Assembly (NCBI GenBank): GCA_943788985.1
Contig: CALSSJ010000023.1
Span: 1-64,000 of the forward strand
Source: an uncultured Lentisphaerales bacterium
GTDB taxonomy: Bacteria; Verrucomicrobiota; Lentisphaeria; JABSQK01; UBA12247
DNA length: 64,000 nucleotides
Reading direction: 5' to 3'
The position numbers and the translations under genes are program-made. Under the pieces are notes generated by a model. That model was not told the DNA's origin and did no database searches. It saw only the letters and a program-made list of their open reading frames with translations. Below, one piece after another: positions 2,630-57,885 of the stretch (its first letter is position 1; the number at the start of each line of letters is the position of its first letter).

Positions 2630-4795
2630 CTATTGAAATCCGACCCGTCTGCGGATTGCCCATTCAGCTACGAGCGGCAAGACCAACGCCAGCAGCAGCC
2701 ACCAATTATCCCATACCGGCGAGGCCGATGCGATGCGCCGCACGGTCACGACCTTGGCCCCAAACGGTACGTCTGCCATTAAGTCAGCTAGCCCAGCCTG
2801 GGACGTGGCCTGGCCTCCCGTACGATCGGAAATGGCTTGAAGCAGTGCAGGGTCTGCCAGTAGATTCTCGTCCTCAATCCGCGAGGCATTTACCGAGATC
2901 CTAAGCTCGTTGCTCTCAAGTGTCTGGCCCCGGTGTTCTCCCTGAGCGCGAATGGAATAGATTCCCGTACTCAGGCGGAGGGCGGCGACCAGACTATCAC
3001 CACTTGGTAACGCAGGCTGAGAGGTGACAGCGCTGCTTTCAAGATCGGTAATCGTTAACGCGACGGCCAGGTTGGGAATTCCAACGTTGTTTTCATCTGT
3101 TGCTGAGGCGATAACTTCCAATGGCTCGCCTGCCCTCACATAGGTCGTGCCCGCCGAAATCGAGAGCCGGCGCGCCATGTCGTCCTCCTGCGATGCCAGC
3201 CAATACAGAGTCCGCATCCAGAGGTGGTCGTAGAGCCTCTTGGGGGTCTCGGGGTTCAGCCGCCAGGTCCAGGTCACAGGCGTGGTCCAAGCCGCCACCC
3301 GGCCCCGACCTGTCTGATCCGTCACCAGCAGCGGGTAATTTCGCTGATCGACGAACAGGACCTCGCTCATAGCCCGTGCCGTCAGAGACCGTAGCCGCAT
3401 CCCATGCCCCGGCAGTCGCTCCCAGGCAAAGTCCCGCGAGCCCAACAGCTGATCCAGTTCCCCCAGAATAAAGTGGCTCTTCTGCGCACCTACGACCTTG
3501 GGGGCAAACTCACGATGCTCCAGGGTCGAGTCGTTCGCCCGTACCGGGAGAATGCTTTGCAGGGGCCGCAACCGATCATCAAGCAGATCATTGAAAGTCG
3601 AACCAATCGCCAGCAGGCCCGCACCCCGGTTCTTCACCAAGGACGGCAGCCGTCGCCACTGATTCGCAGTCAATGTCTCCGGGGCGATTCCGCCGAGAAT
3701 AATGACGTTATAGGCGGACAAATCCAGCCCCTGCACCTCGGCGATACCCCGCTTCGTGCGCAGATAAAACGGCGATGGCGATTCGAGCGTAAAGCCCTCG
3801 TCGGCGGAAATTAACCGCCTAAGAAACTTGTACTGCGGGTTGATCGACGCCTCCAGATACAACACTTGGATCCCTTCTTCCTTCACCCGGACAAACACCT
3901 GCATTTCGTTATTATCCGGCGAGATCTCCCCCGGGAGCGGCACCAGACGCAGTGTCACCAGATAGAACCCTGGCTCATTAATCGCCGGGAGCATCAAGCG
4001 TTGCTTAACCTTCTCGTCAGCGGTCTCGCACTGAATCCTACGGTCTGCGACCCGCTTATCATCCACCAGACACTCCAGCTGGCAGCTACGCCCCTCAGCC
4101 CCTCGAATCAGGCCGGAGATATTGATGGGGAACGGCTTTCCCGCCTCTACCACTGGCGGCACCAGCACGTCGGTCACCACTGCATCAACGATTCCAGCTG
4201 CGAACTCCGCACGCCCAAACTGTGCCGTGTGGATGGGAATCCCGGCTTCGATATAGGGAGCGAGTGCAGGAAGAGGATCTCGCCCGGCAGTGTTGCGCCC
4301 ATCGGACAGCAGAATCACGCCGTGGAGCTTTGCGCCTCGTTCGGCGCGCAGTGCTGAGGACAGCACATCCCCCACAGCTGTCGCCTCCCCCACATCAGCC
4401 CCGTTGTGGGCTAATCGGTCACCGAAGTCGTACTCGGCAAGCTCCAGTAACTGGCCCACCTCGGGGGCTGCCGCGAGCGCCTTCTCCCAGGCTGCATCCA
4501 TCTGCCCTGCTCGCGTCTCACCGCCCCTTCCATCTGCCACCGCCATACTGCCCGACCGGTCCCGAAGTACGATCAGCTTTCCTTTCTCGGCAGTCTCGTG
4601 CACCACCGCGCGGGAGGGCCGCAACGCCATCGTCAGAAGCAGGCCCCAGGCGCAGGCCCGCAGGAACAGCAACAGCACTTTCGGCTTCCAGCCCAGTTGC
4701 GGAGTCCGCACATAGCGAACAAAGGCAGGCGCCATTCCCGCTGCGGCAATGCACAACAGCCACGGGAGTGGTAGAACTGGTGACGTCGCAAGCAT
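2630..4795 (-). CDS. vWA-domain membrane protein with CARDB-like and glutamine amidotransferase-like domains
   Basis: DRSGSM MIDAS motif, LLSDG, N- and C-terminal TM helices, EWAIRRR terminus. Confidence 0.8.
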   Translation of the reverse strand: MLATSPVLPLPWLLCIAAAGMAPAFVRYVRTPQLGWKPKVLLLFLRACAWGLLLTMALRPSRAVVHETAEKGKLIVLRDRSGSMAVADGRGGETRAGQMDAAWEKALAAAPEVGQLLELAEYDFGDRLAHNGADVGEATAVGDVLSSALRAERGAKLHGVILLSDGRNTAGRDPLPALAPYIEAGIPIHTAQFGRAEFAAGIVDAVVTDVLVPPVVEAGKPFPINISGLIRGAEGRSCQLECLVDDKRVADRRIQCETADEKVKQRLMLPAINEPGFYLVTLRLVPLPGEISPDNNEMQVFVRVKEEGIQVLYLEASINPQYKFLRRLISADEGFTLESPSPFYLRTKRGIAEVQGLDLSAYNVIILGGIAPETLTANQWRRLPSLVKNRGAGLLAIGSTFNDLLDDRLRPLQSILPVRANDSTLEHREFAPKVVGAQKSHFILGELDQLLGSRDFAWERLPGHGMRLRSLTARAMSEVLFVDQRNYPLLVTDQTGRGRVAAWTTPVTWTWRLNPETPKRLYDHLWMRTLYWLASQEDDMARRLSISAGTTYVRAGEPLEVIASATDENNVGIPNLAVALTITDLESSAVTSQPALPSGDSLVAALRLSTGIYSIRAQGEHRGQTLESNELRISVNASRIEDENLLADPALLQAISDRTGGQATSQAGLADLMADVPFGAKVVTVRRIASASPVWDNWWLLLALVLPLVAEWAIRRRVGFQ

Positions 4796-4843
4796 CTCAA
4801 TCTACCTGCATTTGCAAAGTCATCGCGTCAGTGAGAACACGGC

Positions 4844-5827
4844 TTAGCGTTTCATCCGTTCATCGATCAGCAGCACGACATCATCCTTGCGCAGCGTTTC
4901 CTGTTCGACGTTATAGCGATACTCACCATCCGTGTACAAGGCGACCGCGCGCGGGAATGCCTCCCGGACCGCCTTGCCGATATCCTCCTCGAGCGGCTCA
5001 ACCTGCTTGATAAACGGGTCTTGCGTCCGGGTGTTAAGCTGCACCAAAAACTTACTGCAGATTGGGCTTACGGCCGCCTGCGACAGCATCCGTCCCAGAA
5101 TTGTAGCCGATGGCAGCAAATAATCCGCGCCCACAGTAAGGAACCGGGCCTGGGTCGCCTCTTCGTTCACGCGAACCGTAGCCTTGATCTCCGGATTAAG
5201 CCCCTTTGCCGTGACCAGAACATAGAGATTTTCGGCATCGGACTGCGTTGCGATAATGATGTGAGCGGCCTTTTTTACGCCAGCCTGAATCAAGGTTTCA
5301 TCGCTCCCCTGATTGCCATAGAGAAAGTTTGAGTCGTTCACCGCCTCGGCGACCGCCTGCGGCAAGTCCAGCATGGGCGCGCTATGTAAGATCACGTACG
5401 GGCTCTCGTGTGCATCAAGCTCGTGCACGATGCTCGCAAGTAAGTCCGTGTGAGCGATCACGATCGTATGATTGTTATTTTTGCCGAGCATCCATTTCCT
5501 CCAGATCTGTTCGAGTGACTTCATTGCGGTCTCGAGCACCACCAACGATGCCCCAAGAAACACCGTGGCTGGTAAAAGCGCGAGCAGGATGGTGCCAATC
5601 CTTCCAGCGTTCGTCTGCGGCGAGTAATCTCCGAACCCGATCGTTCGCACCGTGACGATCACGAAATAGAATGTTTCCAGAACGCCGCCGAAATCTTCTA
5701 CCACCAAGAAATAGGCAGTGAATCCCACCACCATCACAGCCATAAAAATGAACGAGGTCACCAGATAAAAGCTCATCTGGCGCGCCGCGGTCGCAGGCAG
5801 CCGCTTGGTGGACCGAGTATCAGTCAT
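4844..5827 (-). CDS. 2-TM potassium channel with RCK/TrkA-N domain
   Basis: TIGFGD selectivity filter and C-terminal RCK domain (DAENLYVLVTAKGLNP); start overlaps upstream stop (ATGACTGA). Confidence 0.85.
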   Translation of the reverse strand: MTDTRSTKRLPATAARQMSFYLVTSFIFMAVMVVGFTAYFLVVEDFGGVLETFYFVIVTVRTIGFGDYSPQTNAGRIGTILLALLPATVFLGASLVVLETAMKSLEQIWRKWMLGKNNNHTIVIAHTDLLASIVHELDAHESPYVILHSAPMLDLPQAVAEAVNDSNFLYGNQGSDETLIQAGVKKAAHIIIATQSDAENLYVLVTAKGLNPEIKATVRVNEEATQARFLTVGADYLLPSATILGRMLSQAAVSPICSKFLVQLNTRTQDPFIKQVEPLEEDIGKAVREAFPRAVALYTDGEYRYNVEQETLRKDDVVLLIDERMKR

Positions 5828-26942: not shown

Positions 26943-27337
26943 CTGGCGGCTCTTTTCGAATGAACAGATTCTGGGATAGGCTCTCGGAAAAATCGGTATT
27001 ATAGCACACCCATCGGAATCTTGCTATAAATTCATTGTCCCAGAAAGGTCACCCTCACGCTCAAAAATCTGGAATTTCTGTCCGCAAGACTGGCCGTGAG
27101 TGAGGGCATTCGTCGGCGAATGCCCGCATGCAGGCGAGATCGTCGGTAGGACCGAAGCACAAACGAAGGGCCTCCAGCAGCCGTTCGGGCCTCCTGGCGT
27201 TGCGGACTCCGCAACCGGATAGCTGGTCTTGCCAGCAAGCCGTCGTCGAATCAGCGGGGTGGTTTCCGCGGTAGGAGGCTGACTAGCAATCGCCTTGAGC
27301 ACGGCGACCTAGTCGTCGAGAGTCTGGCGCTTTGCCG

Positions 27338-40453: not shown

Positions 40454-40499
40454 AAAAAAGCACTGAGCGCGCCTCGCGATGCGATCGCGCACTCAGTGC
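40454..40499 (-). terminator. Probable terminator between the convergent kinase and glnK genes
   Basis: GCACTGAG...CTCAGTGC stem preceded by an A6 run on the + strand. Confidence 0.55.
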
Positions 40500-40529
40500 C
40501 TTGGCTCAGAGAGGGCAGACGCTCAATTC

Positions 40530-40865: not shown

Positions 40866-40884
40866 CGTTCTTTTCTCCGCTTGC

Positions 40885-42207: not shown

Positions 42208-42287
42208 TCCTCGCCCTATTAGGGTTGCCATTTCGTTCACAAGTCCCATTGTGAACCAACATCACCACGGAAACGTAAGCAGAAACC

Positions 42288-42809
42288 ATGCCAACGACAA
42301 CCAACCCCGCTGTTTCCTGCCTGAAGGCACAACCGCCAAATACGTTTCCTACAATATTGTATTACTTTTTTGTAGGATTGCTCTGCGCGGGCTGTGTCTC
42401 CAGCTCACCGCATCGAGCCTGTCGCAAAGCCACCATTCCTGAGTACAAGGGCAGCTACCTTTGCGGAGTTCGCAAAGCAAATCCAGCCTGGTGGCTGGCC
42501 AACACAGACTCCCCATTGCCCGACTGGTGGCAGCCAGACCTTCACCCGGACAAGCGCCTCCGTAGCTGGAACCGACGCAATCCGCTGCATAACTTCACCC
42601 ACTACATCATTGGCATCTCAGACCGGGACTTCTGCCGTTACGGCATCAACCCAGATGGCGTTTGGGGACCATATGGCATCAATGCCACAGTCCTTCACAC
42701 CGGGCCCATCGTCCTGCCCTTTCTCAGCCTCCAGTCGCCGTGGATCGAGGCCTACGCAGGCTGGCGGGATCGCGGAAACTTCGGCCTTGCCCTCCGCCGC
42801 CGCGACTGA
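42288..42809 (+). CDS. Hypothetical Trp-rich protein, possibly a lipoprotein (start uncertain)
   Basis: LLCAGC lipobox-like sequence; W..RNPLHNFTHYIIG. Confidence 0.55.
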   Translation: MPTTTNPAVSCLKAQPPNTFPTILYYFFVGLLCAGCVSSSPHRACRKATIPEYKGSYLCGVRKANPAWWLANTDSPLPDWWQPDLHPDKRLRSWNRRNPLHNFTHYIIGISDRDFCRYGINPDGVWGPYGINATVLHTGPIVLPFLSLQSPWIEAYAGWRDRGNFGLALRRRD

Positions 42810-42814
42810 GCCCT

Positions 42815-45610
42815 CTACCGAGGCCTACTGCGCCGCCGCCTCTTCTGTGGTTCTGTGAGCACCAGCGCCAGGTTCCCCGTAACCCTCGGCAACACCCAAG
42901 TCGCCACTTCGGCGTCCCCTAGTTTCATCAGTGCCGACCCAGGCTTGGCAGTAGCCAGATCCCAGATCCGCACCTCCCGGCTCGTCCCCGACCCCAAACC
43001 CGGCAGGCTGAGTAGCGCCCCAGCCACCGCCAGCTCCGACGAATTCTCCACGTAGATCAGGCCCGTGCGAGCCGCCAGCACCGAGTCGCAACGTAACGCC
43101 ATCACCTGCTCGTCCGCCGGCTCCAGCCGAATACTTGACCACCGCAGCCACCCCGCGCCAGTGCACGCCAACTCCACAACATGGGCTCCCCCCGGAATCC
43201 GCACCCGCATCCGTGCCCCGGTTGCGAACTTCGCAACTGGCCAGCTTGTCTCGGAGATCGGCTTCCCATCCAGCAGGATCCGCAGCCCACTCCCCCGGTC
43301 GTCCACACTCTCCACCGTAAGGACCAACTCCAGCGCTGCATTCGTGCTCAGCTCCAGTCGCATCCCCGCGGACGCCTCCGGGTGCAAGTATGCTGGCAGC
43401 GGCTCGCGCATAGAAACAGTCAACAGCTCATCAATCCCCGCCGTCCCCGCCTCGCCGTCAGGATCGAACCCCACAGCCACCGGGACCAGAGTCAGCTCTC
43501 CAGCCTTGCCGCGCGCAGGTGCCCTCACCACCACCCGGTCCATCGCCATTACTCGGCCATCGAGAAACCGCCGCCAAGCCACTAGCGACTCACCCAGCCC
43601 ATCATCGGCCGCAAACGGAGCGGGTGCCCCAGCCAGTGCTGCCTTATACAAAGCCGAACGCACCACCGACTCATGCCATAGACGCAGGCCATGCCCATCA
43701 CCCGCCACCACCGCCTGAATCTCCCCGTCACTCACAATCCAGCGACGATTCATCACCATCCCCAGTGCTTGGTCCCACTCCTCCAGCAGCCATTCCCCCT
43801 CGCGCACATCCGAGATCGTCAAGGACAACGCCCCTGTCGCCGCCGCCTGCCCCTCTGGAGACAACAGCATCGCCGTCTCACCACGAAGCCCATGTGCAGG
43901 CACTGCCGAAAAAGCCGGGACCAGCCGAATCCCCTTCAGCTGAAACCAGTCCGCTCCCCCGTTATAGATCCTGAGCGTATGCTGCCCAGCTGGCACCCAA
44001 GTCGAATAGGTCCCCTGATGCCGCATCACCGGCCTGGCCCGCTCACGTTCCAGGCGTGAAATCGAAAACACCTCGCTCTCTCCGCCAACGCCATCCAGCT
44101 CAAACCCAAGCGTCGCGCCCACATAGGACACCTCGCCCACCTCCAGTTCTACCGAAACCCCATGTGCCGCGTCCACTTCCACCGTGATCTCGTTTAGTTG
44201 ATCCGGCCTCACTGCGCCGTGTACGTAGGCTGGCAGCTCACCCTGCAGCGCTGGATTTGCGGAGTTCGCAAACAGCGTCACCGGATTCGCATCCGTACGC
44301 TCAAACACCCCGTCAGGCGGCCGAAACTCTCCCGCGCCGAGTGCTCCAGCGGGCTGCAACTGCACCGTCAGCGGCCGTGCATGCTCCCTGCGCGCATCGA
44401 ACGGCCCCAGCCACGCCTCATGGCGCGCGTACTCCGGATACAGACTCTTGCCTCTGGCCGCGACGCTCCGATACAACGCCCGCTCCAGCCAGGCCCCATG
44501 CGCCTCCACACGAGCCCCCGGAACCGCAGTCATCTCCGGCAGTTGGCCCGACAGCAACGTCAGCGGCTGCTCACACGCCGCCACAAAATTCGCCGCGGCC
44601 GCATGCCCCGCATAGGGCGCGTAATGGTGCTTGGCATCGTGATTGCGCCAGAACATCACAAAGCTGATCCGCCGCGCCACCGGATCCGCCAGAATCGGGC
44701 CGAGCAGACAGTCTGTAAACCAATTCTCAGTCGGCAGGCCTTCCTCGCCACACTCCGTCAGGGCCGCCACCTTGTCGCGCTCGTCTGCCAGCGCCACCAT
44801 CACCCGCAAGCGCCGCACCAGCGCGTCCCGCTGTTCTTCAGACTGCAGCGATTCATAGCTATCGTGCCCCAGCACATCCACCACATCATCCCCCGGATAG
44901 CGCAGTAAGTATGACTCTCGATCCACAAAATGATCCGGTGCATACGCAATCAGCAACTGATGCAAATCATAGGTTTTGCGGAGTTCGCAAACCGTCCAGC
45001 GAAACAGCTGCCGATACGCCTCATCCGAGCACGCCCCCGTCCCCCACCAAAACCACGGCCGATTGGGTTCGTGGTACGGCCGCAAAATGAGCGGAATCCG
45101 CGCGCCATTGTCATCCGTCAGGGCCGCCAAAATCCGCGCCACGCGCCGCACCTCCCGAAGCAACAGCCCGTGGTGAGTCCCGCCCGGCAACAACTCCGCC
45201 ACCCGCATCGACTCCGTGTCCTTGAACGACCCGCCCGTGACCAACTCATGCATATGCCAGGTCACGGTCTGCACCTCGCCTCGCCGATGCGACTCCTGCA
45301 CCAGCGTGCGCAGGCTCGACTCCGTCAGCCCGTTCAGCAGCGCCTCTCCGGTTCCGCCATCGGCGCTGCCCACATCCCAGCCCAGCACCGCCGGATGGGC
45401 CCCACAGACACTCTTGAAGTCCGAGCGTCCTGCCTCGCCCTGCCAGCCGACACCATATGCCGTGGCATCCTGATGCCCCAGCATGATCCCAAACGCCGCC
45501 AGATCCTGCAGATTTGCGAACAGCGCACGCGCCGCCGGGTCGGCTGCCGGGTCGCTTGGCCTAGAGAAGACAACAGAGCAAAGAACAACAGATGTCAGAA
45601 TAGCGCGCAT
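42815..45610 (-). CDS. GH26 beta-mannanase-like protein with C-terminal beta-sandwich domains
   Basis: GHQD, RPYHE..WFWWG, YPGDDVVDVLGHDSY, ALTECG, WRN. Confidence 0.85.
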   Translation of the reverse strand: MRAILTSVVLCSVVFSRPSDPAADPAARALFANLQDLAAFGIMLGHQDATAYGVGWQGEAGRSDFKSVCGAHPAVLGWDVGSADGGTGEALLNGLTESSLRTLVQESHRRGEVQTVTWHMHELVTGGSFKDTESMRVAELLPGGTHHGLLLREVRRVARILAALTDDNGARIPLILRPYHEPNRPWFWWGTGACSDEAYRQLFRWTVCELRKTYDLHQLLIAYAPDHFVDRESYLLRYPGDDVVDVLGHDSYESLQSEEQRDALVRRLRVMVALADERDKVAALTECGEEGLPTENWFTDCLLGPILADPVARRISFVMFWRNHDAKHHYAPYAGHAAAANFVAACEQPLTLLSGQLPEMTAVPGARVEAHGAWLERALYRSVAARGKSLYPEYARHEAWLGPFDARREHARPLTVQLQPAGALGAGEFRPPDGVFERTDANPVTLFANSANPALQGELPAYVHGAVRPDQLNEITVEVDAAHGVSVELEVGEVSYVGATLGFELDGVGGESEVFSISRLERERARPVMRHQGTYSTWVPAGQHTLRIYNGGADWFQLKGIRLVPAFSAVPAHGLRGETAMLLSPEGQAAATGALSLTISDVREGEWLLEEWDQALGMVMNRRWIVSDGEIQAVVAGDGHGLRLWHESVVRSALYKAALAGAPAPFAADDGLGESLVAWRRFLDGRVMAMDRVVVRAPARGKAGELTLVPVAVGFDPDGEAGTAGIDELLTVSMREPLPAYLHPEASAGMRLELSTNAALELVLTVESVDDRGSGLRILLDGKPISETSWPVAKFATGARMRVRIPGGAHVVELACTGAGWLRWSSIRLEPADEQVMALRCDSVLAARTGLIYVENSSELAVAGALLSLPGLGSGTSREVRIWDLATAKPGSALMKLGDAEVATWVLPRVTGNLALVLTEPQKRRRRSRPR

Positions 45611-45748
45611 GCCAGCTAGTAACACGCACCTCGGCTCACGCAACAGCGCTCCGCATATCCCCAGCAAGAATCGCAGGACACCGCGCCCGAGAATAGAGGT
45701 TTTCCGCTATGAAGGCTGTAAAATAGGGCCCTACTTAGATGCCCGCCG

Positions 45749-45988
45749 TTATCCGTCAGTTGTGCCCGACGATTCGGGTTCGCAACATTGCAGGGAAACG
45801 ATCGCCGTGGCGATAAGGCTCGTGCAAACGAACAACGCGCCCGCCGCAAATCCTGAGGAGCCAGCGGTAATATCCCGCGGATCCGCGGACGCCATAAAAA
45901 TGAAACTCAGCACCATCCCGATACCTCCTGCCGCGGTGAGAACTGCACTGCCAACCAGCACAATCGTCTTCAATTGCTTTCCAATCAT
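45749..45988 (-). CDS. Small 2-TM membrane protein
   Basis: GGAGG RBS; two hydrophobic helices. Confidence 0.55.
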   Translation of the reverse strand: MIGKQLKTIVLVGSAVLTAAGGIGMVLSFIFMASADPRDITAGSSGFAAGALFVCTSLIATAIVSLQCCEPESSGTTDG

Positions 45989-46042
45989 AGTCAGTCTCCT
46001 CCCTCTGCATCTTGAATCAGTGACTATTTTTGGTCACACCCG

Positions 46043-48154
46043 TCAGCCCATATCGCGCACAAGCTGCTCACTGCAGCGAAAGGCCAAGGCGTAAATTGTC
46101 AGCACCGGGTTGAAGCCGCCATTTGTCACGTGTAACGACCCGTCGATGACGGACAGGCCCTCGTGGCCGTGCACCCGACCGTATGAATCACAGACCGATG
46201 TCGCCGGATCATCCCCCATGCGACAAGTCCCCGCCTGATGCTGACCGCCCGGTCTCCCAGGCCGACGCGGGGCATTGCGCCACAAACGCTCGGCATCCGA
46301 CGCCCCAACCCAGTCCGCAGCCCGGTCGGCCAGAAACTGTGATGCGCGTACACTCTCCTCGTGGCATACCCCCGAAAGAACCGCCGCTGGAATCCCCAAC
46401 GAATCACGGACACCGGGATCCACTCGTACGCGGCAATCCGGCGTGGGAATCTCCTGAATCGGCCCACAGACATGGATCATACGCCGAGCATCTTCACGCA
46501 TGAATCGCTTATTCTCCGCACCCCAGCCGGGCACTCCCGGCGGCAGATGGCCATGCCACGTGATCACCGGCAGCAACACAAACTCATCGCACAGCATCCC
46601 ACCGCCAATAATCCCCTCGTTGCCGTGACTCCAGTGCGTCGTACCGATCCGGACCCCAGGCCCAGTATAATCCACCACCTCTCGGCGCAAAATCCCACGC
46701 GCACCGCTGTACAGATGGCCCTGCAGGTTGCGACCCACCTGATCGTTCTGATTGCCCAAGCCCTGCGGAAACCGATCTGTCGCGCTGTTCAGCAACAATC
46801 GCGCCGACTCAATCGCCCCCGCACTGCACACCACTTGGCGTGCCTGCACCGTGTGACAGCTCGGCCCATGATTTCCCTGGCGCCGCAGTTCCACAGCGGT
46901 CGCCCGCCCCTCGTCATCCACCAACACCCGGGCCGCAGAAGTCTCCGTCAACAGATCGCAGTTTCCCGTCGCCAGCGCGCGCGGAATCACGCTGTTGTGC
47001 GAGCCTGTTTTGGCATCCACCGGGCACTCAAAGCCCACACAGGCGCCACACCCAGCGCAGGCTGGCCTGCCGCCGTAATCCGTCGAGTTGATCAGCAATG
47101 GCGGAGCCCCTGTCGCAATCCCTAGCTTCTCCGCGCCTTTGCGGAGTTCGCAAGCCGCCGGGGTATCCGGCAGTGGTGGCATTGGGTACGGCGCAGACCG
47201 CGGTGCAGCGTGAAATGCGGAGTCCGCAACCCCGCAGACGCCCAGCTCTGCCTCCGCCTGCGCATAGTGCGGGGCCAACTCCTCGTAAGAAATGGGCCAA
47301 TCGGCGAGCGAACTTCCCTTTGGCACGCCGTAGTCGCTCGCCATGCGAAAATCCTTCGCTAAAAACCGCCAAGCCTGCGCACCGTACAGGCGAGTCCCCC
47401 CGCCCAGCATCTGCGCGTTATTACTCCAGCCCCCATGGTTGGGCTGAAGTACCCGCCGGGTCCCGTCCTCGCCAATTACCACGCGCGGGTTGCCCGCCAA
47501 CGCCGGGCCGCCATTGATTCCGTAACGGCTCAGGCGATGATTGCGCAGATGATCGCTGCCAACCGTGCCCTGCGGGCGCCAGCTGCCCCGCTCCACCAAG
47601 AGCACCGTCTTACCAGCTTCTGCCAGCTGACAAGCCACCACCCCGCCCCCTGCTCCGGCACCAATCACCACAGCATCGTATCGTTCGCGCAACTGCTCGG
47701 GTGCGATCTCCGCAAGCTCCGCTGGAGTGTGCGCGCGGGTAGGCCGCTTAATCGCCGGGCTGTAGCTCATCATCGGCCAGCCTGCCTCCGGGCCATGCGC
47801 CCCGCTGCTTGCGTCCGAGTAGTAATTCTCCGCCACCAGCGCATTCGCATCCCGAAACCAGCCAGCCTGCTCTCCAGTTGCGAACTCCGCAAGCAGCGCG
47901 TCCTGCGCCGCTGCGGCCAACTCTGCGAACTCCGCATCAGCCAGCCTTTCGAGGCCAGCCAGAAACTCGTCCTGCTTGTGCGCCCAATCGCCCGCCAGCA
48001 ACCGCGAGACATAGTCCTCACATTCCGCCTCGGCACCATCCGGCCAGCCGTCGCCTCCCGGAATTACCCGCCGGGCAAACGCCCGCAGCACCTCTCTCTG
48101 CTTATCTGTGACAGCTCTACGCCCCGTTTTGCTTCGCAACCGCGAACAATCCAT
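46043..48154 (-). CDS. GMC oxidoreductase fused to an N-terminal gluconate-2-dehydrogenase subunit-3-like domain
   Basis: IGAGAGG FAD motif, LGGGT, HQAGTCRMG, NPVLTI; N-terminal RRVIPG..P.GA.A..YV..L. Confidence 0.85.
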   Translation of the reverse strand: MDCSRLRSKTGRRAVTDKQREVLRAFARRVIPGGDGWPDGAEAECEDYVSRLLAGDWAHKQDEFLAGLERLADAEFAELAAAAQDALLAEFATGEQAGWFRDANALVAENYYSDASSGAHGPEAGWPMMSYSPAIKRPTRAHTPAELAEIAPEQLRERYDAVVIGAGAGGGVVACQLAEAGKTVLLVERGSWRPQGTVGSDHLRNHRLSRYGINGGPALAGNPRVVIGEDGTRRVLQPNHGGWSNNAQMLGGGTRLYGAQAWRFLAKDFRMASDYGVPKGSSLADWPISYEELAPHYAQAEAELGVCGVADSAFHAAPRSAPYPMPPLPDTPAACELRKGAEKLGIATGAPPLLINSTDYGGRPACAGCGACVGFECPVDAKTGSHNSVIPRALATGNCDLLTETSAARVLVDDEGRATAVELRRQGNHGPSCHTVQARQVVCSAGAIESARLLLNSATDRFPQGLGNQNDQVGRNLQGHLYSGARGILRREVVDYTGPGVRIGTTHWSHGNEGIIGGGMLCDEFVLLPVITWHGHLPPGVPGWGAENKRFMREDARRMIHVCGPIQEIPTPDCRVRVDPGVRDSLGIPAAVLSGVCHEESVRASQFLADRAADWVGASDAERLWRNAPRRPGRPGGQHQAGTCRMGDDPATSVCDSYGRVHGHEGLSVIDGSLHVTNGGFNPVLTIYALAFRCSEQLVRDMG

Positions 48155-48224
48155 AGCACGTCATAGCTCATCCTGCAACAAAGCGTACATTCTCACATAG
48201 GGCCATATTCAGGACCTTTGCCAG

Positions 48225-49135
48225 ATGATCGCAGTGAACCGCCCACAATCAACAATCAACCGCCTATTGTTGACCCTGTTCGGAATTGCGATCCTCATCG
48301 GCGCCGGGAAAGTCACTTGGACCGAGTTCCAATCCTACCTCTCGTTGCGGAGTTCGCAACAGTGGGGACAGCGCCCGGCCACCTTTACCAAGATCCTGAA
48401 GGACGCCGACGATAGCATCATCGGCGCCGAGTTCACCTACAGCTTTGACGGAACACTGCGGACCGGCGATCAACTCTACCTGCGAGGCCTCACTCCGCCT
48501 GCGCAGCTGAAGTCCATCACCCTAGGTGACCAGACCACCTGCTACGTCAGCTCGCAAGGCGAAGCGGTGTGGACGCCACAGTTCACCGACCTTACGGCTT
48601 CGGCCCTGTATGTGATGATTCCCATCCTCATTCTATTTCCGTTCTTCATCATCATTCTGTCCCTACTTCACCAAAATTTCAGTGGTTCGCTGGGGTGCCA
48701 TCATCGGGGATGCAGTTTGTTTTTCTTGGCTTACGGATTGTTCTTGACCTGACAGCGCTATGCCTGGCGTGGAAACTCTTGCGTCACGGTAAAGGCATAG
48801 ATTCAATTCTCGAGTGGGAGGATACAAATGTCATCGGCGACGTTCTGCGCGGACGCCTGCTAGTGGGGACTAAGTCCTCACCTGACTCGGTAAAACTCAA
48901 GCTCTCCCACACTACAGAAAAATCCGATAACAACACAGCCGTAGCAGAGTGTACTGTGGACACACGCCAGATTGATGGCCGTAGTGTTGCGGAGTTCGCA
49001 ATTCCAATCCCCGGCTATTGCCCGCCCACAGCTGAGAACGTTACCTGGAAACTGCAATTTCACGACGGCAAGCGCTGGTCATGGGCGCTTGAACTCCCCC
49101 TGGCTCGCGCTCCTACTGAGGCTTTTCAATGGTAG
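48225..49135 (+). pseudogene. DUF3592-like membrane protein, split by a frameshift at ~48700-48750
   Basis: TM helix, S..W..P..I..FTYSFDG..G, TM helix; continues in another frame. Confidence 0.5.
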
Positions 49136-49830
49136 GCTGCAAAGAGGAACCGAAGTATAGTCTACAAGGCAAAGTCGTCTGGTGGGTCGGCGGACTCTGG
49201 ACGTGCTTGATTCTCCTCATTTGGGGAATTTCGCCTCTTATTACAACGACAGCGTCAACTTGTACAAAGCACACCGATGGTGTGGGGCAAGCGGTTAAGC
49301 TCCACCGCAGCAACGCAGCCAGGGAGCAAAATGGCCGCAGCCCTCCGGGGCGGGGCGGCGAACGACCATCTGCGGCGTTGCGTGTCGCACACGTACCTAC
49401 GGGTACGCGTCGCTCCACGCGCCTGGCAGCTAACCATTCGGCGCTCCCGCCAAAGTGTAACGTTAATTCCGCGCGGGCCCTTAGAACACGACGGGAGCTC
49501 AAACAGCAACTTGATGCTGGCACGGTCCGCATTTGCCATGGTGCTGCGGCGGAAGCAGAAAGTGAGCTGCGGCCAATGGTGATGTACGATATGGTAGGCC
49601 TCTGCTCCCTCATCTTCGCTATCCTGTCAGGGGTATATGGCGCCCTATCGCATGTCAATCAGGGCTGGATCACATGCAGCGCAGTAGGAGCAATCAGCAC
49701 GGTTGTCTGCTTGATCCGGCGCAGGAGGATTCTCAATCGGGCCAAAGAAATATTCCTCAGCGACAGTGCATTCTTTCGTCGGTGGGCCGACGCTGGTCTC
49801 TTCTGGTGTAAGCTAACCCAACTGGACTCA
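49129..49830 (+). pseudogene. Second membrane-protein gene, apparently interrupted by a non-coding insert
   Basis: TM-bearing N- and C-terminal parts flank a non-protein-like block at ~49295-49484. Confidence 0.4.
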
Positions 49831-51552
49831 AGCAGAGGCAATCGCTGGGATCACGCCGCGGACGGAGTTGAGGATGGCCAGGGCATCGCTGCGGGGCAGG
49901 TCTTGGGGCGTGATTGGGGCCTCGACGAGCTCTCCGCTGGCCAGCAGTTCACTGCGCAGGGTCCCGGCCAGCAGGCCGCAATCGATAGGCGGTGTCAGCC
50001 ACTGCCCGCGCAAGAGCACGGCCAGGTTGCCAATGGAGGTCTCGGTGCACTCGCCGCGCTCATTGACGAGGATGACGTCATCGGCCGCAGGGGCGGACTG
50101 GCGTGCGGTGTCGTAGGCGAGGCGATGTGTGGTTTTGTGGCGCAGAAACAGGTCCTGACTGTGGACGGAGTCGGGCACGACCTTGAGCCTCCAAGGCTCG
50201 CCGGTGAGGCAGTGAAGGGTCTGTGAGCGAGGCGTCGATACGGCGGATGCTGTGAGTTCGACCCTGCCTTGGGGATCACAGGTCAGACGAAGGCGGGTAG
50301 GCTCTTGGTCCTGACGGTGCCTGAGCCGTTCACGCAGGGCGGGCAGGTCCAGGGCAAAGCCAAAGTAGGATGCGGAGTCCGCAAGTCTGGCCAGATGGCG
50401 GTCCAACAGCCAGATGCCCTCTCCGGGCAGGCTGATCATGGTCTCGAGCAGGGAGAATCGTGGCTGTGGGCGCTGCATGATCTGCGCCTTGAGCAGGCAT
50501 TCGGCATACTCGAGCTGGGTTGCGGAGTCCGCAATCACGCCGCTGCCTACGCGATAGTGCGCGCGCCCGTCGGCTGCGACCTGAAGGGTGCGTATGGCCA
50601 CGTTGAACAGGGACCGCCCATCGGGCAGCAGGCAGCCGATGGCCCCGCAGTAGGCGCCACGCGGTGCTTCTTCCAGCTGATCGATCAAGCCCATCGTCTG
50701 GACTTTGGGCGTACCAGTGACGGAGCCGCAGGGAAATAATGCTTGCAGGCAGTCCCAGAGCGTGGTGGCCTCGGAAATCTTGGCGCTGACGGTGGAGGTC
50801 ATCTGCAGCACGGTGGGGTGCCGCTCGACCTCGAATAATGCCGTGGGCTCGACACTGCCGAAGTCGGCGATACGGCCAAGGTCGTTGCGGAGCAAGTCGA
50901 CGATCATCACGTTCTCGGCACGGTCTTTCTCGGAACTGGCCAGTTCGTGCGCCAAGGCATCATCTTGAGAGGTGCTGAGTCCGCGTGGCCGGGTGCCCTT
51001 CATCGGGCGGCAGGTCAGGGTGGTCCCCTCGCGCTTGAAGAACAGTTCCGGCGACAGTGAGATTAGGGACCAGTCCTCGGTTTCGATGCAGGCGAAGTAG
51101 CCGAGCTGTGTGGTGGGACATAGATCTTGAAACAGCGCCATGGGGCTACCAGTGAGGGTGCCGTGCATGCCAAAGGAATAGTTGACCTGATAGGTCTCGC
51201 CGTCTTTGATCCGCTGGTGGATATCGGCCATGTGTCGGCGATAGGTGCTGGCACTGATGGCAGGCACGAGCGGGGAGAGTGAGGCGGCGGATCGTTCAAT
51301 GGGAGCGGTTTCGCCACAGACGCCGAACCAGGCAAGCGGCAGGTCGAGCTCCCGACTGGCCAAGGCGCTGTCGAAGGCTGGTGCAGCGTCGTAGGCGATG
51401 TAGCCGACAACGGTGGCTCCGCCTGCGGCGGCGGCTTCGGCCGCGGTGATGACAGCGCGAACGTCGGCCAGATCGTGGGCGACGAACTGTCGCGATATCT
51501 TAGTGAAGAAGTGGACGCCCTCGGACCGAAAGTCAATCCGGGCGCGGTTCAT
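49828..51552 (-). CDS. pabB: Aminodeoxychorismate synthase component I fused to ADC lyase (PabB-PabC)
   Basis: SPELFF, PMKGT, AENVMIVDLLRNDLGR, FPCGSVTGTPK; class IV aminotransferase C-terminus (HKTT.R, CGLLAGT, NSVRG). Confidence 0.92.
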   Translation of the reverse strand: MNRARIDFRSEGVHFFTKISRQFVAHDLADVRAVITAAEAAAAGGATVVGYIAYDAAPAFDSALASRELDLPLAWFGVCGETAPIERSAASLSPLVPAISASTYRRHMADIHQRIKDGETYQVNYSFGMHGTLTGSPMALFQDLCPTTQLGYFACIETEDWSLISLSPELFFKREGTTLTCRPMKGTRPRGLSTSQDDALAHELASSEKDRAENVMIVDLLRNDLGRIADFGSVEPTALFEVERHPTVLQMTSTVSAKISEATTLWDCLQALFPCGSVTGTPKVQTMGLIDQLEEAPRGAYCGAIGCLLPDGRSLFNVAIRTLQVAADGRAHYRVGSGVIADSATQLEYAECLLKAQIMQRPQPRFSLLETMISLPGEGIWLLDRHLARLADSASYFGFALDLPALRERLRHRQDQEPTRLRLTCDPQGRVELTASAVSTPRSQTLHCLTGEPWRLKVVPDSVHSQDLFLRHKTTHRLAYDTARQSAPAADDVILVNERGECTETSIGNLAVLLRGQWLTPPIDCGLLAGTLRSELLASGELVEAPITPQDLPRSDALAILNSVRGVIPAIASA

Positions 51553-52739
51553 GGCTGCTCGGCTGCCAGCTGTTCCACGAGGCTGCGGTCGAGCGCATTG
51601 AGGTTGGTCACGGAACCGAGTGGATTTGGCAGGGCAATGGAGAGTTCGCCGCCGAGATGCTCGCGAAACTCGTCAAGCCCCTGCCAGACCGCCTGGAAGT
51701 CGGTCTGCAGCAGTGTGTGTGTGGTCGGCAGTCCGACGGCCCGCAAGGCACCCACCACACGATCGCAGTCCGCCTTCTCGATGAGCCTGACTCGAGCTGC
51801 GTAGCGGAGATCAAGCGCGACGCCAATGGCCACGGCCTCGCCGTGCAGTAAGGAAAAGTCGGTGAGACATTCGAGACGGTGGGCGGACCAATGGCCAAAG
51901 TCCAGAGGCCGACTCGTCCCTTGCTCGAACGGATCGCCGCCCGCGCAGATGTGGGCCATGTGCAGTTGAGCCGTGCGCTCAATCATGTGGGCCTCTGCCT
52001 CCGCTTCGCGGTTGCGCAGTTCGCACACATGGTCGCAAAGCCAGTCGAGGAAGTCTCGGTCCTTGATGATGCCCACTTTGAATGCCTCGGCGAGGCCACT
52101 TACCCAGGTGCGCTGATCAAGCGTAGGCAGGAAATCATAGTCACAGACGACTAGATCCGGGACTTTGAAGGCGCCCCAGAAATTCTTGGTGCCGAAGCCA
52201 TTTATGCCATTCTTCACACCGACCCCGGAATCGTTCATGGACAGGACGGTGGTAGGCATGCGCACCAGGCGGAGTCCGCGATGGGCGGTGGCAGCGACAA
52301 AGCCAACGGCGTCCAGCACGGCACCGCCCCCAATGGCGATCAGATAGGAATGGCGACAGAGCTTGTGGTCCCGAATCCAGCCACCAAGGTCCTCGATCAC
52401 TGGCCATCCGGCTTTGGCTGCCTCGCCGCCAGCGATGGTGCGAATGTCGATGAGCTGGAGTGCCGGCGCATGGCGAGCGGCCCAACGACGAATACGATCG
52501 AAGAGCCCGGGGTGCGCCACCGCAACATTCTCATCGATTACCACAGCGATCCGTGCGGGTACCATTTCGTCCGGAAGCCAGGCATAGTCGTCAAAGGCGC
52601 CGCGCAGGAAATGCACGGCGTAGGCCGCCTCTAGGGTGAAGCGGCTGCTTTGGATGTTGGTCGCGGCAATGGTGGGCAAAGTAAGAATCCCCGACGGCTG
52701 AAAAGCCTCAATTTCTACAGGAGCGCGCCGGGCGTGCAA
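51549..52739 (-). CDS. 3-dehydroquinate synthase family protein (EboD-like; start uncertain)
   Basis: GGEAAK, GGGAVLD, MPTT, GDPFE..RPLDFGHWSAH, HGEAVAIG. Confidence 0.85.
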   Translation of the reverse strand: MHARRAPVEIEAFQPSGILTLPTIAATNIQSSRFTLEAAYAVHFLRGAFDDYAWLPDEMVPARIAVVIDENVAVAHPGLFDRIRRWAARHAPALQLIDIRTIAGGEAAKAGWPVIEDLGGWIRDHKLCRHSYLIAIGGGAVLDAVGFVAATAHRGLRLVRMPTTVLSMNDSGVGVKNGINGFGTKNFWGAFKVPDLVVCDYDFLPTLDQRTWVSGLAEAFKVGIIKDRDFLDWLCDHVCELRNREAEAEAHMIERTAQLHMAHICAGGDPFEQGTSRPLDFGHWSAHRLECLTDFSLLHGEAVAIGVALDLRYAARVRLIEKADCDRVVGALRAVGLPTTHTLLQTDFQAVWQGLDEFREHLGGELSIALPNPLGSVTNLNALDRSLVEQLAAEQP

Positions 52740-53776: not shown

Positions 53777-54961
53777 ATGCAGATTCTACTAGGAATCACG
53801 GGTGGTATCGCGGCGTACAAAATGGTGGACGTCTCGAGTACGCTGCGGCAGCGGGGATGCGATGTCCGCGTTGCGATGACCCCCAGTGCACAGGCTTTTG
53901 TACAGCCGACTACGTTCGCGGCCGTCTCAGGCGCAGGGGTTCTGACTGAGATGTTCGGCGATGCACGCACGGATGACCTAAAGGCGCATTACCCCCACCT
54001 GTACCCGGCGATGGAGGCAGACGCCTTTGTGCTCGCACCGGCCACAGCCAACACGATTGCGAAGATCGCGACCGGAATCGCCGACAACGTGGTGACCTGC
54101 TCGGCGATCTCGCTGCCAAAATCTGCCCGGCGATTCTTTTGCCCGGCGATGAACGCGCGCATGTGGGAGCAGGATGTCGTGCAGGAGAACGCGGCCTTGC
54201 TTCGTGAACGAGGCTGGCAGCAACTGGGCCCGGATAACGGACACCTGGCCTGCGGAGTGCTGGGAGCAGGCCGCATGGTCGATCCCGCGAGTATCGTAGA
54301 AGCGGTCCTAGCGACCGAGGACCGGGTGCTCGCTGGCAAGCGAGTCTTGATCTTGTCCGGCCCGACCCGCGAGCCGATCGATGCGGTGCGCTACATCACC
54401 AACCACAGCAGCGGCCTGATGGGTAAACTCCTCGCGGAGCAGGCTGTGGCGGCAGGTGCGACGGTAGACTTTGTGACCGGCCCGGTGACGACGGAGAATC
54501 TCCCGAGCGGCCCCGGCATCCAGCGGCATCCGGTGGGAACTGCCGCCGAGATGCTCGCTGCTGGTCAAGCGCATTTCGCGGATGCGGACATCGCAATCTT
54601 TGTCGCTGCGGTGGCAGACTTCACCATCTCCGATGCGGACACCGCAATCAAGATGGCGCGTGGTGCAGGCGTTCAGCTTAGCCTGACGCCCACCGTGGAT
54701 ATCGCGGCGACGCTGTCGGCGCAGAAGCGCCCTGATCAGTGCTGCGTGGGGTTTTCGCTCGAGGCCACTGCAGACGTCGAACGGGCAACTGCGAAACGGG
54801 CACGGAAACAGCTCGACGGCATGGTCCTGAATACGGTAGAAGCGATGAACGCCGAGGGTGGTACGTTTACCTGGATCGGGCAGTCTACGTCCGACTGGGG
54901 ACCACTCAGCAAGCGTGAATGTGCCGGGAAGATTCTACAGCAAGTCGCAGCGCTGGTATAG
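53777..54961 (+). CDS. coaBC: Bifunctional phosphopantothenoylcysteine decarboxylase/ligase
   Basis: GITGGIAAYK, APATAN, PAMN, LACG..G.GRM, GPTREPIDAVRYITNHSSG. Confidence 0.95.
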   Translation: MQILLGITGGIAAYKMVDVSSTLRQRGCDVRVAMTPSAQAFVQPTTFAAVSGAGVLTEMFGDARTDDLKAHYPHLYPAMEADAFVLAPATANTIAKIATGIADNVVTCSAISLPKSARRFFCPAMNARMWEQDVVQENAALLRERGWQQLGPDNGHLACGVLGAGRMVDPASIVEAVLATEDRVLAGKRVLILSGPTREPIDAVRYITNHSSGLMGKLLAEQAVAAGATVDFVTGPVTTENLPSGPGIQRHPVGTAAEMLAAGQAHFADADIAIFVAAVADFTISDADTAIKMARGAGVQLSLTPTVDIAATLSAQKRPDQCCVGFSLEATADVERATAKRARKQLDGMVLNTVEAMNAEGGTFTWIGQSTSDWGPLSKRECAGKILQQVAALV

Positions 54962-55769: not shown

Positions 55770-57120
55770 CGTAGTTGCTCCTCTAACCATTCTAAGGCCT
55801 GCTCACGAGAAGTGAGCGCGCCATCCAGCTGTAAATCTTGAGCCTTCCGCAGCAGTTCGCCAATCCTTGGCCCCGGCGCGATGCCGAGCGCCATGGCATC
55901 GCCGCCGCGCAGCAGCGGCTCGGGAACTGGCGGTTCGTTGGCCAGCGCAGCCAGCTCATCCAGGCAAAAGACGTAGTTGTCTAAGATCCCATGGCAGGCC
56001 AAACAGTCGATGCGATGCAGGTCTAGCTCGAGCTCGAAGGTGTCGCGCCCAAACATGCGCCGCAGTGTTGCCTTGCGCATCTTTTTTACGTCGGCAAAGG
56101 ACATGTGGTAGTAGACTAGCTCGCGGACTTGGCGGATGTGCTCATTGGAGGCTTTGAGGCGCTTGAGGATGTCCTCGGCCATGTCCGCGCCGACGGCTGC
56201 GTGACAAGGAAAGGTCTCGCGACCATGGGACCCAATCTCAAAGGTGGGTGGCTTGCCTACATCGTGCAGCAGCACGCCCCAGGCCAACGCCGAACAGGGA
56301 TGCACCATATTGCGCAGCAGCAGCATGTTGTGGACCCAAACGTCCCCTTCCGGGTGATATTCTGGCGGCTGGGTCACGCCATGCATACAGGTCAGCTCCG
56401 GCAGAATCTCTTCCAACAGCCCAAGGCGGTCCAGAAGTTCGAATGCCTCGGCGGGTTGCGCCCCGGTGAGCATCTTGTCTAGTTCCGAAAAAATTCGCTC
56501 GGCGCTGATCTGGGTGATCGAGCCGGAAAACTCCTGAATTGCTGACTCCGCAGCGGAGTCGAGCGGGAACTGAAACCGGGCGGAGAAGCGGACGGCGCGC
56601 AGCATGCGCAGGTAGTCTTCCTCGAAACGACGGGAAGCATCACCGACGGTTCGAATGATGCCCTTTTTAAGGTCTGTCAGGCCGCCGATAAAATCTACGA
56701 TTTCATGGGAAACGGGGTCGTAGAAGAGCGCGTTGATGGTGAAGTCTCGGCGCTTGGCGTCCTCTCGGGCATCGGCAAAGGTTACGCCTTCCGGCCTGCG
56801 GCCATCGACGTAGCCGCCATCAATGCGGAACGTGGCAACTTCGGTTTGGACCTCTTCTCCCACGACGACGATGACGCCAAAGGCAGCGCCGACGGCGACG
56901 TTGCGGCGAAAGAGCTTCTGCACCTGCTTCGGAGTTGCGCCGGTGGCTACGTCTACATCGTTGGGGGCCCGGCCAAGTAGACGGTCGCGGACCGCACCGC
57001 CGACCACATAGGCCCTCGTGACCGTGCTCCCGTAGAGTCTGCACGATGAACGCCGCGTGTTCCTCGGCGGGAGTCAGGCCGGCTTGCTGGCCAGATCTGG
57101 TTATGAATTCGTTCGGACAT
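55766..57120 (-). CDS. cca: CCA-adding tRNA nucleotidyltransferase/poly(A) polymerase with HD domain; two apparent +1 frameshifts at the 5' end
   Basis: VGGAVRD, DVDVAT, RRDFTINAL, EDYLRMLRAVRF, HDVGKP; N-terminus recovered by removing a base at ~57080 and at ~57013-57015. Confidence 0.9.
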
Positions 57121-57180
57121 GGTGAGGTTCTCCGTTCGGCAAATCACCGGCTGATGCCGCACTCGCCTGTTCTTTCAAGC

Positions 57181-57885
57181 TCAACGTCGCCGCAGAGTCG
57201 CTAAAGCGCGCAAAGTAAATAATGCCTCTTTGCGCACCCAGGGAGGGGCGTCCGGAGCTTCGCTTAGTGTTTCGACCGCCTCCAGAAAGCCAGGTGCCTC
57301 GTTGCGGAGTTTACGCACCATATAGACGGACGCCCAGCGCGCCTCCCAGAAGCTGCGCGTCTTTTCCTGGCCTGCGTGGGCGTCTGGATTAAGATGATCG
57401 GCGAGCAGTTGAATCTCTTCGGCACTTTCACCACCTGGCTGCAGGGCGATAATTGCCCCAGCTGCGTAGGTGTGTAGAACCGGGTCTTCGGACCAGAAGA
57501 ACACGCGTCGGATGCTGGCCATAGTCTCGTCTTCGACCTCGCCGAAGTTGGCAAATGCGCGCATCATGAAGGCACGATTTACGGGATCGGGCTCGACGTC
57601 GAAGGCCGCTCGCAGTGCGAACTCCGCAATGCTGCCGTCATGCCGCAGCAACTCAAGAATGTGGGCGGCTCTCCGACGCTCCCATTGATCGCCCCGCAAG
57701 TCACCGCGCAGCATCTCAGCAGTCTGCTCAAGGGTGGCCCGCAGCTTGCGAATCTCTGGCAGAGTTGGGGGGCGGCTTCCAGAATCCCGCCAGGAGGTTT
57801 GCCGAAGTTCTGGTTGACCCCGAGGGGGCGTGACGCATCCACAGAGCGCGCTAGCCAGTAGGCCTAGGCCAATCAGGCTTCGCAT
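57181..57885 (-). CDS. Helical-repeat lipoprotein
   Basis: ALCGC lipobox; HEAT-like helices. Confidence 0.55.
   Translation of the reverse strand: MRSLIGLGLLASALCGCVTPPRGQPELRQTSWRDSGSRPPTLPEIRKLRATLEQTAEMLRGDLRGDQWERRRAAHILELLRHDGSIAEFALRAAFDVEPDPVNRAFMMRAFANFGEVEDETMASIRRVFFWSEDPVLHTYAAGAIIALQPGGESAEEIQLLADHLNPDAHAGQEKTRSFWEARWASVYMVRKLRNEAPGFLEAVETLSEAPDAPPWVRKEALFTLRALATLRRR

Follow-up and report, generated by a model that had tools for sequence, protein, structure and literature searches.

Described DNA words closest to the Lentisphaerota palindrome

The over-represented DNA words USS (uptake signal sequence), DUS (DNA uptake sequence), HIP1 (highly iterated palindrome 1), Chi, KOPS, parS and matS have each led to DNA-handling machinery. 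To our knowledge, no such word has been described for Lentisphaerota, a poorly studied phylum of the PVC (Planctomycetes-Verrucomicrobia-Chlamydiae) group. The 13-bp palindromic word TGCGRASTYCGCA analysed here has 21 exact matches in a stretch of 64,000 nucleotides from an uncultured Lentisphaerales bacterium (GenBank assembly GCA_943788985.1, contig CALSSJ010000023.1, positions 1 to 64,000), referred to below as the window. The word is a lineage-specific over-represented recognition word that is imposed on unrelated genes at the level of the DNA and is shared by genomes of widely differing GC content. The initial annotation of the window had matched it to no recognised motif, and no paper describing it was found. 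Literature searches with the motif strings returned no relevant paper, the sole match being a primer-like string in the accessible part of a G-protein-coupled receptor paper, and searches for such a word or for uptake sequences in Lentisphaerae, Verrucomicrobia and Planctomycetes returned none.

By architecture, the closest described systems are the sites read by chromosome- or plasmid-organising proteins: parS (ParB), the KorB operators, matS (MatP) and the Noc and SlmA sites. These sites are perfect palindromes of 13-16 bp, odd or even in length, are read by dimers, lie mostly in coding DNA without promoter bias, form arrays or regional sets and keep their sequence across genomes of differing GC content. 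Like the present word, the parS, matS and Noc/SlmA-type sites show no intergenic preference. The word in the window has the 6-1-6 architecture of matS, but the two sequences differ, and it is unrelated in sequence to the other organiser sites as well.

By phenomenology, the closest counterpart is HIP1 (GCGATCGC) of the cyanobacteria. According to the available text of three reports, HIP1 resembles the present word in being a short, strongly over-represented palindrome that is mostly intragenic and occurs in all frames (PMC5861425, PMC13756078, PMC4390886). The same portions of these reports place HIP1 in a deep lineage of varied GC content with an uneven distribution along the DNA, as is the case here, and describe a function debated between nucleoid structure and uptake (PMC5861425, PMC13756078, PMC4390886). 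However, the present word is 13-17 bp long rather than 8 bp, belongs to Lentisphaerota rather than cyanobacteria, and is estimated at tens to low hundreds of copies per genome rather than one per gene. Its local enrichment is about 2000-fold, against 15- to 300-fold for HIP1. The over-representation of a palindrome that characterises the HIP class was found (21 copies against 0.01 expected, or 2.3 in codon shuffles), whereas a fully contained target of an orphan methyltransferase was not: GANTC is present in 9 of the 21 copies and no sub-palindrome is enriched on its own.

The uptake words USS (Pasteurellaceae) and DUS (Neisseriaceae) are, like the present word, information-rich words imposed on coding sequence. 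The accessible part of one report describes for them a frame bias, an enrichment of the encoded peptides and a poor conservation of the affected residues (PMC2817400), and all three features were found in the window. An excess of exact over single-mismatch copies, here about 2:1, is also shared. In contrast to USS and DUS, the word is palindromic with dimer symmetry and strongly clustered, its counts in other genomes speak against thousands of copies, and competence is not known for the lineage. A last group comprises the Ssn-related motifs (NTS/dRS3) and the repetitive extragenic palindromic (REP) sequences, which are also repeated palindromes; NTS cluster non-randomly around genes, according to the portion of the report available (PMC11893778). 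However, these are extragenic hairpins of 20-40 bp with loops, oriented flanks and a link to an ssnA or RAYT gene, whereas the present word has 13-17 bp, no loop, an intragenic location, no stem covariation and no associated gene in view, neither ssnA nor RAYT having been seen in the window scans.

Over-representation and constraint at the DNA level

All 21 exact copies listed in the initial annotation were recovered at their coordinates. Its near-zero chance expectation also agrees with the present values, since dinucleotide-preserving shuffles of the window (n = 100) contained on average 0.01 copies of TGCGRASTYCGCA, never more than one, so that 0/100 reached 21, and the zero-order per-gene expectation is 0.0095. 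Synonymous-codon shuffles, a control already suggested there, yielded a mean of 2.33 and a maximum of 5 copies (n = 500), well below the observed 21. They were run within 53 greedily chosen open reading frames (ORFs) of at least 100 amino acids, some of them doubtful, which make up 90.6% of the window, and the mean of 2.33 includes two copies that lie outside this ORF set and hence were never shuffled. Pieces of the motif were the top over-represented 8-mers and 10-mers of the window in an unbiased k-mer count. The relaxed pattern TGCGRWSWYCGCA has 28 matches, namely the 21 exact copies and seven variants, where six variants had been counted before. The motif is sharp. Exact copies outnumber one-mismatch copies about 2:1 (21 to 10, against 0.7 one-mismatch copies expected from a 4th-order Markov model), and the two-mismatch copies are at background (10 against 8.2 expected). 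Of the ten one-mismatch copies, seven have A and T exchanged at position 6 or 8.

Sixteen of the 21 copies lie in ORFs that are supported by protein families (Pfam, Atlas) and four in ORFs without a family (57616, 48346, 48988 and 42462, the ORF at the last being doubtful), while the copy at 27201 is intergenic. The earlier statement that 20 of 21 copies are inside ORFs therefore holds mechanically, and the intergenic total is one or two of 21. Both orientations and all three frames occur, as had been noted; their usage, however, is unequal. In 14 of 19 genic copies the frame is T-GCG-RAS-TYC-GCA, which encodes Ala-[Glu/Asp/Asn/Lys]-[Phe/Ser]-Ala.

The window ORFs contain 19 peptides of this A[EDNK][FS]A class, and 14 of them are encoded by the exact 13-mer, where codon usage gives, by arithmetic, a chance of about 0.1-0.3% that one such peptide would be encoded by the motif. 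The class itself is about five times commoner than in residue shuffles (19 against 3.8 ± 1.9; n = 1000, maximum 11), and the five peptides that are not encoded by the motif correspond to the residue-shuffle background. The affected residues are poorly conserved. In an alignment of the GMC oxidoreductase (A1), identity to the query is 0.28 over the 24 motif residues and 0.52 elsewhere, and in an alignment of the 2-oxoacid:ferredoxin oxidoreductase beta subunit (A2) it is 0.22 at the motif residues and 0.66 elsewhere. In place of the window's ADSA, the closest homolog of the beta subunit (79% identity) has AAEP. The motif peptides are not conserved among the nearest homologs, which were compared at the protein level and may derive from lineages that do not carry the motif. 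The constraint acts on the DNA, and so strongly that amino acids are changed: the DNA sequence determines the protein sequence, because most A[EDNK][FS]A peptides are motif-encoded, the class is enriched and its residues are poorly conserved. Codon shuffles, peptide enrichment and residue conservation thus agree with the view taken in the initial annotation that the DNA, not the protein, is constrained. A protein-level repeat was rejected as the source of the copies, given that the host genes belong to unrelated families.

The sequence preferences extend beyond the 13-bp core. Position -1 is T (symmetrically, +1 is A) in 29/42 symmetrised views, and position -2 is G or T, likewise in 29/42; therefore, the effective site has 15-17 bp. 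The 17-mers quoted earlier at 27199, 43221, 42460, 44256 and 44975 are all correct, and the copies with the longest arms are intergenic or lie in unsupported ORFs (27199, 42460 and 48344). Within the core, variation is lowest in the outer arms, TGCG and CGCA, which hardly vary at all. The centre base is G or C in 21/21 exact and 10/10 one-mismatch copies, and the form with A or T at the centre, TGCGRAWTYCGCA, has 0 occurrences in the window. The enrichment belongs to no sub-word alone: of 22 GCGRASTYCGC and 24 CGRASTYCG matches, 21 each are the full motif, and 28 of the 34 matches of TGCG-N5-CGCA fall in the RWSWY class.

The half-sites TGCGGA and TGCGAA pair as GG in 9, AG in 11 and AA in 1 of the copies, where independent choice predicts about 10, 9 and 2. 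As the half-sites pair independently, positions 5 and 9 are therefore free of hairpin-type covariation. Because covariation is absent and the sequence of the arms is fixed, the site looks like the target of a putative protein dimer that reads duplex DNA with two-fold symmetry. Single-stranded copies can fold into hairpins of 5-10 bp (-5 to -9.4 kcal/mol). A hairpin in RNA or single-stranded DNA was rejected as the selected feature, these folds being modest and positions 5 and 9 not covarying. No homology was found around the copies beyond about 17-24 nt. A larger repeat, a miniature inverted-repeat transposable element (MITE), a REP sequence or a product of duplication was rejected because of this limit, and the earlier exclusion of MITE and REP stands, the copies being intragenic as well. 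Separately, all 11 copies with unlike halves in the window read GGA-G-TTC or its complement and 0 read GGA-C-TTC, of which locus L008 of another genome (see below) has two; the bias could stem from a coding constraint (Glu-Phe versus Asp-Phe) or from what the binder prefers.

Species-representative genomes (185,579 genomes, 596 billion bases) were scanned with an 18-mer version of the motif, of which the window has two copies. The scan returned 24 loci, or seeds, against about 17 expected by chance; the window's own genome is not among them. Seven loci lie in six metagenome-assembled genomes (MAGs) titled Victivallales, Lentisphaerae, Lentisphaeria or, in one case, Verrucomicrobiota, and the other 17 are scattered singletons from unrelated phyla. 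In the NCBI taxonomy, Victivallales belongs to Lentisphaeria, within Lentisphaerota of the PVC group, and the loci found support the earlier guess that the motif belongs to Lentisphaerae. Besides the seeds themselves, the seven Lentisphaerota-type loci contain eight 13-mers in 65,008 bases, whereas the 17 others contain 0 in 244,940 (binomial p = 4e-6). The extra copies number two in L001, two in L007, three in L008 and one in L009 (Poisson p = 6e-6, 3e-8, 1e-9 and 7.5e-4, respectively), and L002, L014 and L024 have none.

The GC content of the Lentisphaerota-type loci ranges from 35% (L007) to 70% (L008). All 15/15 locus copies are within ORFs, 0/15 are intergenic, and 10/15 use the frame preferred in the window. 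The host genes encode sulfatases, an FGE-domain protein, a GFO/IDH/MocA oxidoreductase, argininosuccinate synthase, galactokinase, FAD synthetase, homocysteine methyltransferase, a hydrolase, a class-V aminotransferase and phosphoglucomutase; they are housekeeping genes, unrelated to each other and to the host genes of the window. The hexapeptide FAEFAN is found at four seeds of other loci, in four different families. The same word is maintained at the DNA level in divergent genomes of one lineage, because its copies stand in unrelated genes of loci that span 35-70% GC. A search of PLSDB found no PVC replicon.

Clustering, copy number and possible functions

The copies are clustered. Thirteen of the 21 lie between 41842 and 50533 (8.7 kb), and a scan statistic over seven window sizes gave p values of 0.0001-0.005 for the single sizes and of 0.0003 family-wise, with a maximum of 13 copies in 10 kb (p = 0.0001). 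The remaining eight are scattered from 4.2 to 57.6 kb and form a halo of about 8 per 55 kb, so that copy density varies about ten-fold within 64 kb. Base composition was rejected as the cause of the hot spot (Spearman p = 0.09 for density against gene GC content and 0.20 against GC at third codon positions, GC3). Large, presumably tolerant proteins outside the array have few or no copies. Beside the array, at 48154-49828, the GC3 skew of the plus strand changes sign irrespective of gene strand: genes at 12.5-48.2 kb have mostly negative values, reaching -0.27 and -0.51 next to the switch, and genes from 49.8 kb on have mostly positive ones (+0.33 and +0.23). This is the polarity of a replication origin. 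As a separate observation, the plus strand is unusually C-rich at 34869-48154 (gene skews of -0.12 to -0.26, in genes of both strands), far more strongly than in the rest of the window, and this stretch overlaps the array only partly.

The number of copies per genome was estimated from the seeds. The positive MAGs have 2, 1, 1, 1, 1 and 1 seeds, to which a zero-truncated Poisson distribution was fitted, with about 0.32 seeds per genome (roughly 0.02-1.3) as the result. Any one copy would match the 18-mer with a probability between 0.007 (product of single-position frequencies) and 0.069 (2/29 non-seed copies). Together these values translate into about 5-45 copies per MAG and at most about 180, an estimate that is rough, comes from six MAGs only and ignores MAG incompleteness and differences between genomes. 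An even spread of 20-150 copies over 4 Mb predicts 0.3-2.4 extra copies in 65 kb, against the eight seen. Because the local density near the seeds far exceeds an even spread, regional arrays fit better than a genome-wide word, and the counts point to clustered copies in the tens to low hundreds per genome rather than to thousands as in USS, DUS or HIP1. The motif had been called highly iterated by the initial annotation; the term is apt for its local enrichment, but thousands of copies genome-wide, on the scale of HIP1 or USS, are not borne out by the seed counts.

The explanation tentatively favoured here is an array of binding sites for a putative dimeric protein that would organise or segregate the chromosome. 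The initial annotation had offered a dimeric organiser, a methylase and an uptake system without choosing among them; symmetric-dimer recognition together with clustering now favours the first. The 13-bp core would be the recognition site of a symmetric-dimer protein on duplex DNA, conserved in a set of Lentisphaerota, and the site would extend to 15-17 bp where coding permits. Pressure at the DNA level would write such sites into unrelated genes, at positions that the proteins tolerate, and would thereby produce 13 densely arrayed copies within 8.7 kb, with scattered ones around them in a halo of at least 53 kb. The array would most likely be a chromosomal landmark, centromere-like or nucleoid-organising, where the protein would build a complex of higher order. 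Precedents for the logic of such a landmark are ParB-parS clusters, KorB operators and MatP-matS. Because the word keeps its sequence across 35-70% GC and overrides the choice of codons and amino acids, we infer a conserved protein of fixed specificity; its existence, its tens of sites per genome and its function are deduced from the pattern of copies.

Several results weigh against a chromosomal landmark read by a dimer. The halo, at 8 copies per about 55 kb, is much denser than is known for matS, Noc and SlmA sites, and if the match probability is lower than assumed, a genome-wide distribution would be conceivable, as 500 evenly spread copies would also yield eight extra copies. None of the seven loci is syntenic with the window or contains ori-type genes. 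With consensus sequences taken from general knowledge, DnaA boxes in the window are at chance (6 against 6.3 expected), no canonical 16-bp parS with up to two mismatches was found in the window or the seven loci, and no dif-like site was found in the window. For these reasons, an origin or terminus next to the array is improbable; the gene orientation at the skew switch is likewise at odds with an origin. A scan of 68 window ORFs found no ParB-like domain, and no candidate binding protein was identified. Near the array, in a search limited to the window, genes for MatP or a similar protein were absent, as were markers of ori or ter.

As the main rival explanation, the word may be a tag of self-DNA for uptake or recombination, like USS, DUS or HIP1, for which a receptor or processing protein would prefer tagged DNA, and conspecific transformation together with mutation would drive the word into the genome, coding regions included; this is somewhat unlikely. 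Such a tag would account for an information-rich word at a local density of 1 per 3-8 kb and for the excess of exact over one-mismatch copies, with two-mismatch copies at background. The frame bias, enriched peptides and poorly conserved residues are those reported for uptake sequences in the accessible part of one study (PMC2817400), and HIP1, also a palindrome, is a recently proposed uptake signal according to the available text of another (PMC13756078). However, the ten-fold variation in density and the clustering within 64 kb do not suit a tag, nor do 1-2 seeds per positive MAG and seven Lentisphaerota-type seeds in the whole collection, where hundreds to thousands of copies would be expected. 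Strict dimer symmetry is not a known property of USS or DUS, and the literature search found no report of competence in the phylum.

Operators of a global transcription factor, or sites of another DNA transaction such as Chi-like nuclease control or recombination hotspots, are an unlikely explanation. They would share the dimer-type symmetry of the site, and an excisionase-family helix-turn-helix (HTH) gene lies at 52769-53188, 2.2 kb from the array, but 18-20 of 21 window copies and 15/15 locus copies are in coding sequence without promoter-proximal bias, exact copies dominate over degenerate ones, and Chi- or KOPS-type signals have a polarity that no palindrome can have. Decidedly unlikely is a palindrome of the HIP1 type that is linked to methylation or repair and kept by orphan methyltransferases or sequence-biased repair. 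GASTC stands at the centre of nine copies, and GANTC is the target of HinfI/CcrM-type methylation; however, the other 12 copies do not contain it, no shorter sub-palindrome is enriched alone, and 13-17 specified bases far exceed the usual lengths of methyltransferase sites. Palindromic form, intragenic location, sharing within a lineage across GC content and uneven density match HIP1 as described in the available text of two reports (PMC5861425, PMC4390886), but no methyltransferase gene was seen in the window ORF scans and the genome-wide copy estimate is low. A remnant or target of a mobile element (MITE, REP or Ssn-related hairpin repeat), or an assembly artefact, is very improbable. Single strands do fold, as given above, and other phyla have clusters of hairpin repeats to which Ssn nucleases bind, according to the accessible part of one report (PMC11893778). 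Against this, homology ends at about 17-24 nt, the stem positions do not covary, the genes of many families that carry the copies in frame are intact, the window ORF scans showed neither a GIY-YIG nor a transposase gene, and the same word recurs in independent assemblies.

Returning to a chromosomal mark read by a dimer, it is conceivable, if doubtful, that a Lentisphaerota branch marks its chromosome with its own 13-17 bp palindromes, either as a centromere or nucleoid array that substitutes for parS or as an uptake or recombination signal, which would be the first palindromic one outside Proteobacteria and Cyanobacteria. If so, the system would rewrite amino acids in dozens of housekeeping proteins while its site stays constant from 35% to 70% GC. 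The motif is unusually long and has an unusually clean dimer symmetry, and a defined 17-bp duplex would make the putative binder directly fishable. The distribution of the word along complete genomes would separate the marking of chromosomal domains from the tagging of whole genomes.

Copies, host genes and neighbouring features of the window

In gene content the window is an unremarkable piece of chromosome of the PVC type. Its genes include GH95, DUF1080, DUF11, GMC oxidoreductase, GH26, AmtB, PabB-PabC, AroB and CoaBC (Pfam), as well as the CCA enzyme, DnaX, RNase II and ProC, and an Rfam search of the window returned tRNA-Pro and SRP RNA only. The nearest relatives of three window proteins are 59%, 52% and 79% identical, and the named matches mix PVC with other phyla. 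These values point to an organism without a close sequenced relative in the collections searched.

The copies are given without a strand. To the left of the dense array, the copies at 4199..4211 (TGCGAACTCCGCA, sense frame AEFA) and 4698..4710 (TGCGGAGTCCGCA, frame 1, VRTPQ) share the ORF 2630-4795(-), a GATase1_like/BatA-type look-alike. The copy at 17611..17623 (TGCGGAGTTCGCA) encodes LRTPQ in frame 1 of the CARDB/BsuPI ORF 14967-17660(-). Further copies encode ADSA in the 2-oxoacid:ferredoxin oxidoreductase beta gene 21793-22659(-) (21913..21925, TGCGGAGTCCGCA), AESA in the RNase II gene 24479-26458(-) (25274..25286, TGCGGACTCCGCA) and again AESA in proC 29525-30319(+) (30100..30112, TGCGGAGTCCGCA). 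The intergenic copy at 27201..27213 forms the core of a perfect 17-bp palindrome at 27199-27215.

The dense array (41842..50533) holds 13 exact copies and one variant in 8.7 kb. It begins in amtB 40885-42249(-) with the copy at 41842..41854 (ADSA), which is followed by that at 42462..42474, part of the 17-mer TTTGCGGAGTTCGCAAA; this copy is covered only by unsupported ORFs and is probably intergenic, between amtB and the GH26 gene. The GH26 protein gene 42815-45667(-) contains three copies, at 43223..43235 (TGCGAACTTCGCA, AKFA), the sole copy with two A-type half-sites, at 44258..44270 (ANSA) and at 44977..44989 (frame 0, CELRK). Four lie in the GMC oxidoreductase gene 46043-48154(-): 47140..47152 (frame 0, CELRK) at a variable alignment position, 47216..47228 (ADSA), 47879..47891 (AEFA) and 47924..47936 (AEFA), the last two 45 bp apart. 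The copy at 48346..48358 is within the 17-bp palindrome GTTGCGGAGTTCGCAAC in the ORF 48225-48752(+), and that at 48988..49000 encodes AEFA in the ORF 48569-49135(+); neither ORF has a family. The array ends in pabB-pabC 49828-51552(-) with the copies at 50371..50383 and 50521..50533, both encoding ADSA. To the right of it, a single exact copy at 57616..57628 encodes AEFA in the ORF 57181-57885(-), which has no family.

The one-mismatch copies are found at 22732..22744 in the oxidoreductase alpha gene (position 8, T to A), at 23066..23078 and 23222..23234 (both position 6, A to T), at 33138..33150 in a HAD hydrolase gene (position 6), at 47702..47714 in the GMC oxidoreductase gene inside the dense array (position 6), at 52013..52025 in aroB (position 5), at 54583..54595 and 54634..54646 in coaBC (both position 8), at 56540..56552 in the CCA-adding enzyme gene (position 4) and at 58341..58353 in a DctQ-like gene (position 6, A to G).

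The excisionase-family HTH gene at 52769-53188(-) encodes a protein of 139 amino acids with an N-terminal match to Pfam HTH_17 and TIGR01764; its C-terminal half is unassigned. It lies upstream of aroB and pabB and is the sole DNA-binding candidate in view, and nothing ties the protein to the motif. Among the other loci, L009 contains a run of about 100 N, either masked sequence or a scaffold gap. Three loci carry intergenic tandem arrays of 7-nt units directly upstream of genes, at about 10466-10560 in L001, at 2560-2610 in L007 and at about 4225-4490 in L008. The window has no comparable array, and the unit differs in each of the three MAGs.

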